A DNA stretch of 64,000 nt. It comes from Escherichia phage N2. The DNA lies in the sequence record ON645936.1; one strand, 5' to 3'. Positions 17,211 to 23,661 of the stretch are shown piece after piece. Made by a program: the position numbers and the translations under genes. Each line of letters opens with the position of its first letter. The first letter of the stretch is position 1. The notes under the pieces are model-generated. The model was not told the DNA's origin. It searched no databases and saw only the letters and a list, made by a program, of their open reading frames with translations.

Positions 17211-17562
17211 TTGAACTTTTTAGTACGCGTAATAGGCATGCGTCGATTTTATACTGTTTCATTGTTTGAAGAGCAGTATCAAAAACCGCATTAATGACAC
17301 CAATTGGATTTCCACCCAAGTTTTTAAGTTTAACTAATGATAGTTTCTCATTAACACCTATCATTACGATATGCATCATTTTATCGCCTGGCTTAACGTT
17401 TTTATTTGTATCACCGCCAGAGGTGTATGTACAAAATCTAAATCCAGGAAGCACGCTTTCTTCGCCGGCTTGAATAGCAAAAATTTGAGGTATTTTATGC
17501 TTAGGATTTAAGTTAACAACCGGCGCCGAAGCGCCGTCAAATAATTCTGTAATAAGTTCCAT
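17176..17562 (-). CDS. Alt N-terminal-domain paralog (putative packaged internal protein)
   Basis: 128 aa; about 60 percent identical to first ~120 aa of adjacent Alt (MELITELFD...NLNPK.KIPQIF...CTYTSGGDTN...GDKMMHIV...QYKIDAC). Confidence 0.6.
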   Translation of the reverse strand: MELITELFDGASAPVVNLNPKHKIPQIFAIQAGEESVLPGFRFCTYTSGGDTNKNVKPGDKMMHIVMIGVNEKLSLVKLKNLGGNPIGVINAVFDTALQTMKQYKIDACLLRVLKSSKCSLQVPRVVL

Positions 17563-17565
17563 GAT

Positions 17566-19662
17566 TTATCCTTGAACGAACTTGTAAGGCATGTTTGTAA
17601 TATCTATGCAAGACGCAATAATTCCGAGAGATGATTCTGCTTTCTGTTTAACATTTGATGAAACAAATGATGCAAAGTCAACTCTGTCTTCTATTTCAAT
17701 ATCACCTGTCATTGCAACTACTTCGCCGGTTTCCATTAGACGGTCACCGTCATAAATTACTGATTCGGTGAGTTCTTCCGTAGTCATAACTTCGGCTTGA
17801 ATGAGTTTTGTATTATTAAATGTTATTCCGTCATTATTAGAAGCATCAGTTATTTTGTTAACTTTGACCATCAATCCGCGCGGTAGAATAACTTCAGCTT
17901 CTGATGCTATTCCGAGACTTCCTGGATATACAACATTAACTTTATGAGCTCCATCAATTGCCCATCCTATTTGAACTTTAACATATTCAGGATTTTCTTT
18001 ATACGCTCTTATTTCGCTTGGATTAATAGTTATTCCTTCTTCATTTTTATCAACCGTTAATTCATTGCGAGCTTCTGGTTCTAAAAGACCGATACCAGCA
18101 TGTGTAATTCCAAAACGTCCAAAAATGATAGGAGTTAAAGAAGTAGATACAAAATTTCTGAAATAGAACACTTTATTTTTAACTAGTGCTTCGTATATAG
18201 GAGCAGTCATACTTTGAGCACGATAAACTGTAATGCCTTCTGGTATACGGTCACCATTTTCAAAGGCTGAATCTAAATTATTTATCGCAGATTCAATTTC
18301 TTTTTCACTCATTACCTCATATCGTTCTGGATTGTAGCGGCCTAAAAGAAGATTATTGATGTCAGTATATCCTGCTCCACAATACTCTCTAATGCCGCGC
18401 TTTTGTGATGGAGTATATTTAGAACCATCACGGGCAATAGTAATATCAATCATTGGACCTGCACCAACTCCAGAAAAACTATAAATCATTCGTTTGAGGA
18501 ATACAGTTTTTGCTGCGTTCCAGGAATTTTTAGTTATTTCTTCCCAGACTTCATCTGACTGTCCTTTGCGGGTTTTATTATGTGTATCAAGCCAATTATC
18601 TTTATATTCTTCAAAGAATTGATTAACAGCTGCTGCGTATTTCTCTAAACATTTTATTGAAGTAGTTGGTTCATTTTTGATCGCATTAAGAATTACATCT
18701 TTAATTTTTTCAGAAACCTCATCAACCTCACTTTTTGAAACGAATTTATAGTAATGGCGAAGTTCATTTGTAGTTCCTTCGGCAATAATTTTTGCTGCCT
18801 TAGTTTTAGAAGCTAATGAATTAATTCCAAGCTTCATTTCTTCTGCTTCGGGAATTAAAGGAGCGGTAGCAGGTTTATTAAAATTGGCTGCGGTAGATTC
18901 ATACTTCTGGAATAATTCGCTTTCAAATCTAGAAGATTCTAATGATTGACTTTGTGCAATTGCTCTACGGGAAATTTTAACTTTAACGATTACAGCTTGG
19001 TCAGAACGTTTATCATTTTCTTGCGCAATAGATGCTGCAATTGCCTCATTTTTAGTTACTTGAGCTCCAGTATCTTTGTTGATATAAACATCGCCGACCT
19101 TCGATTCAACTTTAGTAAAGAGCTCGGTACTAATTTCCGGAACTCCTGGAATGTCTTCTAATGATACATTTTTGCGATGTATAAGAATATATGCATACTT
19201 TTTATCGTAATCCCAGATTTCCTTAAGAAGGACGTATCTGCCACCTGAACGACTACGGATAAGTCTATCAGCAATAACTTGAATTTGTCGAGCTTGACCA
19301 GCAGTTTTAGACTTAAGAATACGAAGCATACAAGCATCAATTTTATACTGGCGCATCGTCTGCATTGCAACAGTAAAAACTGAATTGATATAATTAATTG
19401 GGCTTGGACCGAGACCTTTTAATTTAGCAATTGAACCTTTAGCAGTTAATGTAAAAGGAACAATATGCATCATTTTATCGCCCATCTTTAAATCACGGTT
19501 AGTATCACCTCCAGATGTATAGGTACATAAACGAAAGCCCGGTTGTTCAATTGCATCATCAACATGAACTGAAAAAATTTGTGGTATTTTCTTCTTTGGA
19601 TTTAAGTTTGTAATCGGAAGAGTAGTATCTTCGTCAAATAATTCTGTAATAAGTTCCATCAT
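17566..19662 (-). CDS. alt: ADP-ribosyltransferase Alt
   Basis: 698 aa at T4 alt position; T4 Alt-like N-terminus; C-terminal region with Arg/STS/ExE-type ART elements (YRAQ, STSLT, SEAEV). Confidence 0.88.
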   Translation of the reverse strand: MMELITELFDEDTTLPITNLNPKKKIPQIFSVHVDDAIEQPGFRLCTYTSGGDTNRDLKMGDKMMHIVPFTLTAKGSIAKLKGLGPSPINYINSVFTVAMQTMRQYKIDACMLRILKSKTAGQARQIQVIADRLIRSRSGGRYVLLKEIWDYDKKYAYILIHRKNVSLEDIPGVPEISTELFTKVESKVGDVYINKDTGAQVTKNEAIAASIAQENDKRSDQAVIVKVKISRRAIAQSQSLESSRFESELFQKYESTAANFNKPATAPLIPEAEEMKLGINSLASKTKAAKIIAEGTTNELRHYYKFVSKSEVDEVSEKIKDVILNAIKNEPTTSIKCLEKYAAAVNQFFEEYKDNWLDTHNKTRKGQSDEVWEEITKNSWNAAKTVFLKRMIYSFSGVGAGPMIDITIARDGSKYTPSQKRGIREYCGAGYTDINNLLLGRYNPERYEVMSEKEIESAINNLDSAFENGDRIPEGITVYRAQSMTAPIYEALVKNKVFYFRNFVSTSLTPIIFGRFGITHAGIGLLEPEARNELTVDKNEEGITINPSEIRAYKENPEYVKVQIGWAIDGAHKVNVVYPGSLGIASEAEVILPRGLMVKVNKITDASNNDGITFNNTKLIQAEVMTTEELTESVIYDGDRLMETGEVVAMTGDIEIEDRVDFASFVSSNVKQKAESSLGIIASCIDITNMPYKFVQG

Positions 19663-19711: not shown

Positions 19712-19900
19712 TTAATAATCTAGTGGTAAGAGAGTACGATATATTTCAAACTTTGGCCCTTTTTCATAGGCATCAAATGTTTCTGTGAATTTATTATAAG
19801 CATATGCATCTACAAATTCGAGAACGATTTGTGATACAGAAGTAGAAACATCTCCACCTTCTTTTTGAGCCACGACAATTGTTTCTAAGTAAGCTTTCAT
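19712..19900 (-). CDS. Hypothetical protein
   Basis: 62-aa ORF, stop overlaps ligase start; hairpin terminator downstream. Confidence 0.45.
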   Translation of the reverse strand: MKAYLETIVVAQKEGGDVSTSVSQIVLEFVDAYAYNKFTETFDAYEKGPKFEIYRTLLPLDY

Positions 19901-21357
19901 AGACCAGTTACCTCATGAAAATCACCAAATACATCCTCGAATGTATTAGCTTTAGTTTTATCTTCACGTAAACGAATCGCAATCGGAAGAAATAATTTAA
20001 CGTAATCAGTGCGGCCATCAGATTTTAACCAACCGTTGCATTCGCACTCTAGAATTTTTCCAATATAATAATTTTGGTTTTCCATAATGCGAGTACGGTC
20101 AAGTTCATGTGATTTTACACCAGCTTTATCTTTTAAGCCTGAACCTGCATTGACTTTAATTTTTCCACACTCTGATTCAAGAATAAATCCACCAGCTTTA
20201 GTAGGGTCTTTACGGTGAGGATAAATTCCTACAATTTTTAAATCAACATCAATTACTTCTTTAAATTTATAGAGATTTTTTGAACGAGCATTTTCCCACA
20301 ATCCATCTGTATTTTTGAGAATAATACCTTCAAGACCTTGGTCAATATACTTTTTATAAATTACCTTAGCTTCATCTAGGTTATTTACTACTTGGTTTTC
20401 AATTAAAATTACTTTATCATATCCTGATGTCATTTGTTCTAGTTTAGAAAAACGTACATCATATTTTAAACGAAACGTCGGAAGACCGTATATTTCTACT
20501 AACGGAACATAATCCCAGACCTGAAACTTCATGCATTTGGCTTCTTTTTCGGAAATGGTTCCTTTTAAGGATTTATTGGCGATTCCATTAGAAGCAGTAC
20601 GAGATTCCGCTACTTCGGCGAATTCTTTAGCTTTGCTAATTTCAGGAGTGTCAAAAAGAAAATCTAGGCCTTCTGGTTCCTTTTCAACTTGCTCATGGTA
20701 TACCAATTCGCCATCGATTAACACGCCTTCTGGATGAATCTGGCGGGCTTCAGCAGTCATTTTGATTAACTCTTCCTTAAGAAGATCTAATCCTAGGTAT
20801 TCATTGCCAGCTCGCGATAAAAGACGAACATCATCTAATTCATCACCTCGGACTTCAGCAAAACACCGAGCTCCATCTGCTTTTAACTGCGCAAAAGCTG
20901 GAAATTTGATATTCTTACTAATGCCTTTTTCATCATAAGAACTTGCAAGCATTTGAGGTTGTTCAGGAATTAAACCTGGCCAAACTTTGTTTGCAATAGA
21001 TACTGAAGCACCGCATTCAAGGTCTCGCATCATAACTCGACGTAGTACTTCAACATCATCCTTTTTACCATCGGTGATATACCCAGTTAATTCCTCAATT
21101 GCTGCATTTCCAGTCAATTTCCGAGTAGCTAACGTAAATTCAATAAAGTCAAGCATATCGGTAATGGTCAGCATTCCAAAACTCTGGGTAGCAATACCAG
21201 GCTTAGGCCATTTCTTGATATAATACTGTAACCCACGAGAATAAGTCAGACGATATACTCGTTTAAGCAATTCATTATCTTTATTCTTTTCAAGAATTGC
21301 TTGCTTCTGCTTAGTTGATCCAATAGATGCTATTTCATTCAGAATTTTAAGAATCAT
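19897..21357 (-). CDS. 30: ATP-dependent DNA ligase gp30
   Basis: 486 aa; MILKILNEIASIGSTKQKQAILEKN... and KADG adenylation motif as in T4 DNA ligase. Confidence 0.95.
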   Translation of the reverse strand: MILKILNEIASIGSTKQKQAILEKNKDNELLKRVYRLTYSRGLQYYIKKWPKPGIATQSFGMLTITDMLDFIEFTLATRKLTGNAAIEELTGYITDGKKDDVEVLRRVMMRDLECGASVSIANKVWPGLIPEQPQMLASSYDEKGISKNIKFPAFAQLKADGARCFAEVRGDELDDVRLLSRAGNEYLGLDLLKEELIKMTAEARQIHPEGVLIDGELVYHEQVEKEPEGLDFLFDTPEISKAKEFAEVAESRTASNGIANKSLKGTISEKEAKCMKFQVWDYVPLVEIYGLPTFRLKYDVRFSKLEQMTSGYDKVILIENQVVNNLDEAKVIYKKYIDQGLEGIILKNTDGLWENARSKNLYKFKEVIDVDLKIVGIYPHRKDPTKAGGFILESECGKIKVNAGSGLKDKAGVKSHELDRTRIMENQNYYIGKILECECNGWLKSDGRTDYVKLFLPIAIRLREDKTKANTFEDVFGDFHEVTGL

Positions 21358-21489
21358 TGCTCATCCTTCAAAGTTTGGTTTACAGCTCTATTATAAATCA
21401 ATTCATCATTAAGCTCAGGCAAAGACTTATGATATGTAGTTCTAACTTTATTTCCTTGCATCCAGTGCTTGACGTAAATGAAACCTTGC

Positions 21490-21621
21490 TCTACACATTT
21501 TTAAAAATTCGTTCGTCTTTTTGAGCTCGGAATTCTGGATTGCATCTAAAAAATTGATTTACGTGACCGTAATCACGTGTAGTATTACCTTCATTTTCAT
21601 AAATAGTGTGAACGACAAACA
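21490..21621 (-). CDS. Hypothetical small protein (about 43 aa, below ORF-track cutoff)
   Basis: Own translation of minus strand: MFVVHTIYENEGNTTRDYGHVNQFF...; start overlaps upstream stop (TAATG); coordinates approximate. Confidence 0.3.
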
Positions 21622-22485
21622 TTAGAATGCTCCTTGGAAAATATTATCACCACTAGTAAATCTATTAAAATACCCTGCATCACCAGGCTTAGTATAACTC
21701 CACGTATGGAATGGATTCATATGATACGGGTGTGTATAATATGGATTATATGGATGTGTATAATATGGATTATACGGATTAAATCCAGGAGTTCTCCAGG
21801 TAGTGTTCCAGCGAAAAGAATCGTTTTTAATCATCTTTTCAATTACATCTTTTATAGCTTTTTCACTATCAAAACTTTCTTTATTTTCCTTTGGTGAAAA
21901 AAGCTTATTCTCTACATCGTTCCATGTATAAACTCGCTGAGCAGTTTTTGGAATACTGTCACGTTCCCCTCGAGCCATCCAATAAACTGGAACATTTAAT
22001 ATTTCACTCGCATGATCGCAGTGGTGAGCGAGATCGTCAATATAACAAATTACGTTATATTTCTCTTTTGCCTTTTTGAACAACTCTTCTTTTGAAGAAT
22101 CATGGCCACACATCAGTACTTCTGAGAAGGCACCAGGAAAAAGAGCATTCAAATTAAATTGACGATTCAGCAGAGCGTCAATAGAATCACCCAGTGCTGT
22201 AACAGCTACAAAATTATAATCTTCTTTTAATTTGTTAATTACACACAGAGCATCTTTATATGGAGACAAGTAACGAATAAAATCCGAACGATTGTATTTT
22301 TCAATTAACTTGACGCCAAGTTCTTCATCACAATTAAAAAGTTTACCAGGAGAAATAAATTTTTCATCTTGGATCATTTTTAAAATATGTTCCAACGGAA
22401 GATTATATTTCTGAGCAAAATAAGGAAGGCCTGATTGCCAGCTTAAGCATACTCCATCAATATCAGTTAAAATAGTAGGCTTCAT
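21622..22485 (-). CDS. HAD-superfamily phosphatase-like protein with C-terminal Pro/Tyr repeats
   Basis: 287 aa; N-terminal ILTDIDGV (DxDx[T/V] HAD motif I); tandem NPYYTHPY repeats near C-terminus. Confidence 0.65.
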   Translation of the reverse strand: MKPTILTDIDGVCLSWQSGLPYFAQKYNLPLEHILKMIQDEKFISPGKLFNCDEELGVKLIEKYNRSDFIRYLSPYKDALCVINKLKEDYNFVAVTALGDSIDALLNRQFNLNALFPGAFSEVLMCGHDSSKEELFKKAKEKYNVICYIDDLAHHCDHASEILNVPVYWMARGERDSIPKTAQRVYTWNDVENKLFSPKENKESFDSEKAIKDVIEKMIKNDSFRWNTTWRTPGFNPYNPYYTHPYNPYYTHPYHMNPFHTWSYTKPGDAGYFNRFTSGDNIFQGAF

Positions 22486-22946
22486 AGAGAGTCTCTTAAT
22501 AGGTTTAACACATCAATAAATTCAGCTTCGGTTAGTATTGTATCATCTTTTGTTAGACCACTAGCCATGCTGTGCTTCAAAACTTTTCCTTTCGAGGCTT
22601 GTAATGCATCACGAAAACCCTTGTTTTGAATCGCTGCTTCAAAATATGCATTTGTGTATAATTCTTTCCACGCCGGAGAGTATCTTGAAAACGGAACTCC
22701 AAGCCAGAAGAGGGTCCCACGGTCCTGAGCTCTAGCATAAGACCTTCCAGCTTGTTGAGCGGCAAGCCCGGATAACCCAAATATACGACGTTGTTGTTCA
22801 ACATTTTTCACCTTGCATCCTTGGAGGAATCCTTCAAGACCTCCAAATTGAATACCATCCATAACGAAAGGCCATTGGGCGAAATTGCTTAATGCACATG
22901 ATGGCCATCTAAAATTGCTTCTTATCTCTAGCTCAGACATTTTCAA
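22482..22946 (-). CDS. NADAR/YbiA-like (DUF1768-type) protein
   Basis: 154 aa; LSNFAQWPFVMDG...EGFLQGCK resembles YbiA FSNFAAWPIKVDG...EHYFQAQK core; no search run. Confidence 0.55.
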   Translation of the reverse strand: MKMSELEIRSNFRWPSCALSNFAQWPFVMDGIQFGGLEGFLQGCKVKNVEQQRRIFGLSGLAAQQAGRSYARAQDRGTLFWLGVPFSRYSPAWKELYTNAYFEAAIQNKGFRDALQASKGKVLKHSMASGLTKDDTILTEAEFIDVLNLLRDSL

Positions 22947-23139
22947 TACTTATAATTTCAACATCAGCCCAATGACCATAGCAAGGAAGACGAAATTCAA
23001 CTGGCCAGTTAGGGTCCTTTTCTAATATAATAGACTTAACTTGCGGTTCTTCGTGTTCATCAGTATACGGACCTTTATACGTTACTTTATATGTGACCTT
23101 AATGTACTGAATTCCAAAAATCTTATTAATTATATTCAT
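22933..23139 (-). CDS. Hypothetical protein
   Basis: 68-aa ORF in tightly packed minus-strand array. Confidence 0.4.
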   Translation of the reverse strand: MNIINKIFGIQYIKVTYKVTYKGPYTDEHEEPQVKSIILEKDPNWPVEFRLPCYGHWADVEIISIENV

Positions 23140-23620: not shown

Positions 23621-23661
23621 AATATTTTCCTCAATAGGGGGCCGAAGCCCCTCATTTTATT

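Follow-up and report, generated by a model that had tools for sequence, protein, structure and literature searches.

The open reading frame at 22482..22946 on the minus strand of the window, that is, of the whole 64,000-nucleotide stretch of Escherichia phage N2 (ON645936.1) that was analysed, is gene 30.3, situated between 30.4 and 30.2, and it is very probably the adfN gene of a T4-like phage, encoding a NADAR protein that clears guanine-ADP-ribose from phage DNA and so defeats DarTG1. The identity, fold, residues, integrity and context of this adfN were observed in the window itself. By its close likeness to the T4 protein, the allele, which carries the single change I125M, is expected to act like T4 AdfN in both enzymatic activity and anti-DarTG1 phenotype. 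The finding is already known: the earlier note, made from the sequence alone, identified the protein correctly, and the identification is not new. The NADAR biochemistry of 30.3 dates from 2024, and its standing as the main anti-DarTG1 factor of T-even phages comes from genetics and transposon sequencing, both from 2025.

Gene 30.3 and its place in the genome

The window genome is a mosaic Tequatrovirus (T4-like). The 2.3 kb around 30.3 are 97% identical to phage phiC600P9 and are matched by 666 phage records, and the 10 kb around 30.3 are 97% identical to other T4-like coliphages. The minus-strand gene order is that of T4, namely alt, alt.1, ligase 30, 30.1, 30.2, 30.3, 30.4, 30.5, 30.6 and 30.7, followed by 30.8, rIII, 31, 31.1, 31.2 and cd. 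The genes to which the argument refers are located as follows.

17566..19662, minus strand: alt.
19897..21357, minus strand: DNA ligase 30.
21622..22485, minus strand: gene 30.2, whose N-terminal domain (residues 1 to about 200) has a HAD fold and is deoxyribonucleotidase-like, followed by a lineage-specific NPY-rich tail, assigned from motifs, AlphaFold and Foldseek; context, outside the mechanism.
22482..22940, minus strand: coding sequence of gene 30.3/adfN (152 aa plus stop), a phage-type NADAR, predicted DNA guanine-ADP-ribose glycohydrolase.
22938..22946, minus strand: start region of 30.3, with the mechanical TTG start at 22946 (154 aa) and the ATG at 22940..22938, assigned from T4 annotation, alignment and sequence.
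22933..23139, minus strand: gene 30.4, 68 aa, of no known family, whose stop falls just after the start of 30.3.

The frame of 154 aa counted from the TTG, as the earlier note had it, is present in the window, and its start is here moved to the ATG at 22940. This ATG (152 aa) is most likely the real start, not the TTG at 22946, because it is the annotated start of T4 30.3, because the alignment runs residue for residue from that Met, and because the published numbering of E36 and K43 is reproduced only in this way. The ATG lies 3 nt ahead of the stop of the upstream gene 30.4 (22935..22933; AATGTCTGA), and the stop of 30.3 overlaps the start of 30.2 (ATGA); the genes are thus tightly packed, and 30.4 and 30.3 are probably translationally coupled.

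Compared to T4 gp30.3, the window protein is identical at 151 of 152 residues, and the sole change, I125M, corresponds to the family consensus HSMG. The gene departs from that of T4 at 11 nucleotides, and 10 of these changes are synonymous. The Pfam family PF08010 (Phage_30_3) is matched with E=2.3e-70 and 235 bits, against a gathering cut-off of 36, over model positions 1-138 of 138, and a gp30.3 homologue is encoded in 1510 GenBank phage records (at least 99% identical in 213 of them and 100% identical in one, phage teqskov). Judged from the PF08010 score, the 10 synonymous changes among 11 and these 1510 records, 30.3 is a genuine gene rather than a chance open reading frame. In a sample of 30 of the 1510 records, the homologue was almost always labelled 'hypothetical protein'. 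The practical value of the assignment is therefore annotation, in which the databases are behind the AdfN literature; moreover, an intact adfN predicts that the phage grows on DarTG1 hosts, a help in forecasting host range for phage therapy.

Relation to the NADAR superfamily

With the window protein as the query, neither the Pfam NADAR profile PF08719 nor NCBIfam gave a match at E≤1, and the best phmmer match among PDB sequences (E=0.6) was spurious, an unrelated protein of the ATP pyrophosphatase superfamily. The PHROGs search returned a single family, the unnamed phrog_652. Since the single-protein searches gave nothing usable, the link to NADAR was reached through a family alignment and the fold. 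By gathering 104 gp30.3 homologues and aligning 58 of them, it was found that 23 of these 58 members match PF08719 singly, with a best E of 1.5e-7. When compared with the PDB, the profile of the alignment matched only E. coli YbiA (2b3w, E=0.0066); the SNFA.WP..DG motifs are superposed in this match, and the YbiA counterparts of E36 and K43 are a Glu and a Lys. The comparison with PF08719 that the earlier note had proposed would look negative if run naively with the window protein, and the matches arise among other members of the family; the NADAR link is real but indirect. The positions in the protein that carry this assignment are listed below, in the numbering from the ATG.

22854..22889, minus strand: S18-N-F-A-Q-W-P-F-V-M-D-G29, the YbiA-like N-terminal NADAR motif, from codon check and alignment to YbiA FSNFAAWPIKVDG.
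22833..22835, minus strand: codon of the catalytic Glu36, invariant in the 58-member alignment and aligned to a YbiA Glu; E36A impairs T4 AdfN (PMC11825919).
22812..22814, minus strand: codon of Lys43, present in at least 90% of the alignment and aligned to a YbiA Lys; K43A impairs T4 AdfN (PMC11825919).
22572..22574, minus strand: codon CAC of His123, the final residue of the last beta-strand (120-123 in the model), invariant in the alignment and, from the literature, the marker of the phage NADAR clade.
22488..22529, minus strand: intact C-terminal helix, residues 138-151, from the helix in the model, the full length of 152 aa and the RB69 truncation data.

The codon check confirmed the SNFAxWP...DG core that the earlier note had picked out, as S18-N-F-A-Q-W-P24 followed by D28-G29. 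Among the 58 aligned members, S18, N19 and F20 are invariant, and D28 and G29 are found in at least 90%. It is worth noting that the residue at the end of the last strand separates the NADAR types, being Glu in the YbiA type, Asp in the DarG1 type and His in phage NADARs (PMC11125620, PMC11543638). The conserved Glu and Lys after the SNF motif, as well as the last-strand His, are all present in the window protein. Its predicted model adopts the alpha+beta NADAR fold, a helical core between two small beta-sheets, and the protein runs at full length to its stop with the C-terminal helix, without a frameshift of the RB69 type. Taken together, the transitive Pfam matches, the profile match to YbiA, the fold and the catalytic residues support membership of the window protein in the NADAR/YbiA superfamily, as the earlier note had supposed, the membership at the sequence level being transitive.

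Among the characterized NADARs, the one closest to the window protein is T4 gp30.3/AdfN (the anti-DarT factor NADAR, PF08010), with which it shares 151 of 152 residues, the length, the place between 30.4 and 30.2, and E36, K43, H123 and the C-terminal helix; I125M is the only difference. DarG1 (e.g., that of G. lovleyi, PDB 8bat), the NADAR antitoxin of DarTG1, differs in several respects. The window gene is an orphan with no adjacent DarT gene: its neighbours are 30.4 and 30.2, and no ADP-ribosyltransferase lies nearer than Alt, which is about 2.8 kb away, acts on protein substrates and is packaged in the virion. The window protein has no N-terminal extension (152 aa versus 219), it has His123 where DarG1 has the last-strand Asp, and T4 AdfN, unlike the antitoxin, cannot neutralise DarT1 in uninfected cells. 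In E. coli YbiA (2b3w), the Phytophthora NADAR (8bau) and PF08719, the last-strand catalytic residue is Glu, which is His in the window protein; YbiA-type enzymes have C-ADPr and riboflavin intermediates as further substrates, whereas the T4 NADAR does not act on C-ADPr (PMC11543638, PMC12945103). The orphan phage NADARs AdfN-Bas32 (T5-like) and AdfN-Bas60 (Vequintavirinae) likewise counter DarTG1 by removing G-ADPr, but they fall in other NADAR clades, entered their phages independently and are active outside the context of a T-even infection. Two further anti-DarT factors are known from T4: AdfM (Tk.4), a macrodomain of another fold, is directed at DarTG2 (thymidine), and AdfA (61.2) binds the toxin and does not repair DNA.

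Probable removal of guanine-ADP-ribose and alternative functions

Gene 30.3 was reportedly predicted to encode a NADAR in 2012. In the De Souza and Aravind classification of NADARs, as cited in PMC11125620 and PMC11543638, the phage gp30.3 proteins already form a separate group. Schuller et al. showed in 2023 that NADARs reverse the ADP-ribosylation of guanine by DarT1 (PMC11543638), and in 2024 purified T4 gp30.3 was found to take off guanosine-ADPr and not thymidine-ADPr (PMC11125620); cytidine-ADPr is not removed by the T4 NADAR either, according to a report of 2026 (PMC12945103). By recombination between T2 or T4 and RB69, Johannesman et al. mapped the DarTG1 resistance of T-even phages to 30.3 in 2025 and renamed the gene adfN; T4 gp30.3 is a DNA guanine-ADP-ribose glycohydrolase, both necessary and sufficient for this resistance (PMC11825919). 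Once adfN is deleted, T4 and T2 form no plaques on DarTG1 cells, and ectopic adfN rescues RB69, in which a frameshift in the phage's own allele has removed the last 15 residues; the truncation data indicate that full activity needs the C-terminal helix (PMC11825919). The substitutions E36A and K43A weaken the rescue by T4 AdfN, and the purified protein strips ADP-ribose off DarT1-modified DNA while the E36A protein does not (PMC11825919). In a transposon-sequencing study of T4 from 2025, 30.3 was dispensable on K-12 and lost on DarTG1 (bioRxiv 10.1101/2025.11.20.689424).

Based on these results, a mechanism for the window adfN may be proposed. The gene would supply a minimal, core-only NADAR from the leftward gene string 30.7-30.2. 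When the DarT1 toxin of the host ADP-ribosylates guanines in replicating phage DNA, AdfN would hydrolyse the N-glycosidic bond between guanine and ADP-ribose by using Glu36, Lys43 and the clade-specific His123; consequently, unmodified DNA would be restored and phage replication could continue. In effect, the phage would carry its own copy of the DarG1 antitoxin as an orphan. Since the window allele bears E36, K43, H123, its full length and the C-terminal helix at 138-151, it is likely to clear guanine ADP-ribose and to neutralise DarTG1. The suggestion in the earlier note of a reversal of nucleic-acid ADP-ribosylation that counters DarT is in agreement with the T4 protein, which is 99% identical, reverses the guanine ADP-ribosylation by DarT1 and is needed on DarTG1 hosts (PMC11825919, PMC11125620, bioRxiv 10.1101/2025.11.20.689424).

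The values for individual genes in the DarTG1 screen were taken from sheet S6 of Extended Data Table 6 (bioRxiv 10.1101/2025.11.20.689424), whose rows were used from gene-26 onwards, past the rows of gene-1 to gene-25, for the most part essential structural genes. Insertions in 30.3 are strongly depleted (log2FC -7.25, adjusted p 0), and those in 30.2 (-0.12, p=0.61), 30.1 (-0.01), alt (-0.01), modA (+0.11), modB (+0.13) and nudE (-0.03) are neutral; 61.2/adfA stands at -0.34, which is not significant, and the value of -3.0 for 30.5 is caused by one outlier site (bioRxiv 10.1101/2025.11.20.689424). In the rows from gene-26 to the end, the only gene besides 30.3 with adjusted p<0.05 is 30.4, which falls from 375.9 to 108.0 (log2FC -1.79, adjusted p=0.014), and in the DarTG2 sheet insertions in both 30.3 and 30.4 are unaffected (bioRxiv 10.1101/2025.11.20.689424).

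The depletion of 30.4 bears on a further property of the T4 enzyme. T4 AdfN does not rescue uninfected cells from DarT1 toxicity and rescues non-T-even phages only weakly, which implies that the picture of an enzyme acting alone is incomplete; because of this dependence on T-even infection, its authors postulated a potentiating factor of T-even phages. Gene 30.4 abuts 30.3, was detected in 14 of 14 T-even-type loci and in no other locus of a survey of 80 viral contigs, and is depleted on DarTG1 (log2FC -1.79) and unaffected on DarTG2 (bioRxiv 10.1101/2025.11.20.689424). These observations, together with the restriction of T4 AdfN function to T-even infections, would fit gp30.4 being the T-even factor for full AdfN-T4 activity, with 30.4 and 30.3 as a two-gene counter-defence unit. 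We regard this as unlikely. The simpler reading of the 30.4 depletion is a polar effect on 30.3, since 30.4 is the next gene upstream and ends just inside 30.3, and the identity among 30.4 sequences is 38-47% versus about 85% for 30.3, a much faster evolution that argues against a tight partnership. Nevertheless, 30.4 is a cheap candidate for the factor on which AdfN depends.

A different possibility is that the main role of the protein is not DNA repair but the hydrolysis of soluble molecules derived from NAD or ADP-ribose, such as immune signals or RNA-repair by-products, by which it would counter NAD-based or signalling defences. Contextual arguments have led to such a role being proposed for phage NADARs (PMC9503650), and it would suit a core-only enzyme with a small active site whose YbiA-type relatives act on small N-glycosides. 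On the other hand, the activity on DNA and the genetic need specific to DarTG1 were demonstrated directly for T4 (PMC11825919, bioRxiv 10.1101/2025.11.20.689424), and 30.3 is unaffected on DarTG2 and in one further comparison (bioRxiv 10.1101/2025.11.20.689424). The flanking reading frames of the distant homologues, compared by clustering, include no conserved shared gene that would point to NAD metabolism. In the cited literature no 30.3 phenotype against NAD-depleting or signalling systems was found, nor was any other evidence for the role against NAD-depleting defences that the earlier note had considered. A main role on soluble substrates is accordingly improbable compared to the removal of guanine-ADP-ribose from DNA.

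The earlier note had also seen in gp30.3, the HAD-type neighbour gp30.2 and the nearby alt a module handling ADP-ribosylation or NAD metabolites. The HAD assignment itself holds, as the motifs, the AlphaFold model and Foldseek agree. A first 10-sequence profile of gp30.2 against the PDB gave nothing meaningful, and single members reached the Pfam families HAD_2 and NT5C only at E=0.05-0.07. The assignment needed a deeper alignment and structure prediction; the sequence-profile match to the 5'(3')-deoxyribonucleotidase 2jao was weak (E=0.023). HAD motifs I-IV (DxD, T/S, K, DD) are found as D8/D10, T96, K132 and D150-D151; D8, D10 and K132 do not vary among 40 homologues, at least 90% of which keep T96 and D150/D151. 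The AlphaFold model of residues 1-212 has a pLDDT of 92.8. Its best Foldseek match is again 2jao (E=4.7e-8), with 103 matches at E≤1e-3, and all 50 of the matches listed are HAD-superfamily structures or designs on that fold.

A single ADP-ribose- or NAD-handling unit of gp30.3 with gp30.2, with Alt about 2.8 kb off, or with both, may appear attractive in view of the overlap between the 30.3 stop and the 30.2 start (ATGA), the four complete catalytic motifs of a true HAD fold in gp30.2, and the order 30.3-30.2-ligase(-alt), which is kept across T4-like genomes down to about 42-47% identity. In addition, Iyer et al. described the NADARs of T4-like phages as early genes beside ADP-ribosyltransferases (PMC9503650). 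However, insertions in 30.2, alt, modA, modB and nudE are neutral on DarTG1 (bioRxiv 10.1101/2025.11.20.689424), and the best structural match of gp30.2, a 5'(3')-deoxyribonucleotidase, points to nucleotide-pool metabolism. We know of no NADAR that acts on arginine-ADP-ribose, the product of Alt. In the locus survey, in which 30.2, ligase and alt were sought within 6 kb of the gp30.3 homologue in 80 viral contigs, 30.2 was found in 19, of which 18 were genomes of the T-even type or their close T4-like relatives; ligase and alt near the homologue were likewise confined to T4-like genomes. About 60 of the 80 loci, whose proteins are about 40% identical, had none of the three within 6 kb, and when the flanking open reading frames within 4 kb were clustered, no neighbour family occurred at more than 6 of these 60 distant loci. 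The module idea is largely refuted for DarTG1, and the chance that the three genes form one unit is slim indeed. Based on the neutral 30.2 and alt insertions and the lack of a conserved neighbour in the distant loci, adfN behaves as a stand-alone counter-defence gene whose T4 neighbours reflect lineage synteny.

Finally, the idea that the phage carries 30.3 as an auxiliary metabolic gene for a housekeeping N-glycosidase of the YbiA type, with riboflavin-pathway intermediates as its substrates, is hardly credible: the N-terminal motif SNFAQWPFVMDG is indeed very near the YbiA motif SNFAAWPIKVDG, YbiA is the sole PDB sequence match of the family profile and some databases label the homologues 'YbiA (DUF1768)', but the Glu of the YbiA subfamily is replaced by the invariant His123, the phage clade groups nearest the DarG1 type, the T4 NADAR does not have the C-ADPr activity of YbiA-type enzymes (PMC12945103), and 30.3 is dispensable except under DarTG1 (bioRxiv 10.1101/2025.11.20.689424).

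Minor features of the region

Inside 30.3, the alternative-frame open reading frame 30.3' that is annotated in T4 is intact in the window (22577..22804, minus strand). As a conserved second product it was rejected, since 8 of 14 relatives have ACG, ATT or ATC instead of its ATG and nearly all 30.3 substitutions are nonsynonymous in its frame; the nucleotide differences between T4 and the window that fall inside it are all nonsynonymous in that frame. The frame is oddly stop-free in 13 of the 14 relatives. At the distant loci of the survey, long open reading frames (up to 270 aa) antisense to the NADAR gene cluster as 'families' in 36 of 60 and 23 of 60 loci, and they are probably shadow reading frames. 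The phrog_652 profile, which has 296 positions, was matched over positions 126-272 only, hinting at an N-terminal extension in some members.

A scan for sigma-70 promoters and terminators over 19.6-25.7 kb stayed at the background level (25 sites versus 22 expected), and the MotA-box pattern of middle promoters had no site in 22.9-25.5 kb; no transcription unit around 30.3 could be defined from these scans. A GC-rich hairpin capped by a UUCG tetraloop, which reads GGGGC-TTCG-GCCCC on the coding strand, occupies 23637..23653 in the gap that separates the 30.7 stop from the 30.6 start, and its opposite strand scores as terminator-like.

Several neighbours of 30.3 depart from their T4 counterparts. 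The gp30.2 protein has 287 aa in the window and 278 in T4, and its NPY/HPY-rich tail (21622..21850, minus strand) contains an extra 'YTHPYNPYYT' repeat unit compared to T4 and then diverges; in the homologues of more distant T4-like phages (205-212 aa), the tail is wholly absent. In gene 30.1 (DUF3045; 21354..21622, minus strand), a 1-nt deletion in an A-run (A7 to A6, at about nt 120) relative to T4 ends the open reading frame after 43 aa, the remainder continuing in a different frame. Possible readings are a pseudogene, a homopolymer sequencing error and a slippery site. The alt product has 698 aa in the window and 682 in T4, and the 3' part of the gene shares only about 72% of its nucleotides with T4. 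Just downstream of alt, 17237..17562 is 68% like the first 330 nt of alt and resembles the T4 alt.-1/alt.-2 duplication or a second alt paralogue.
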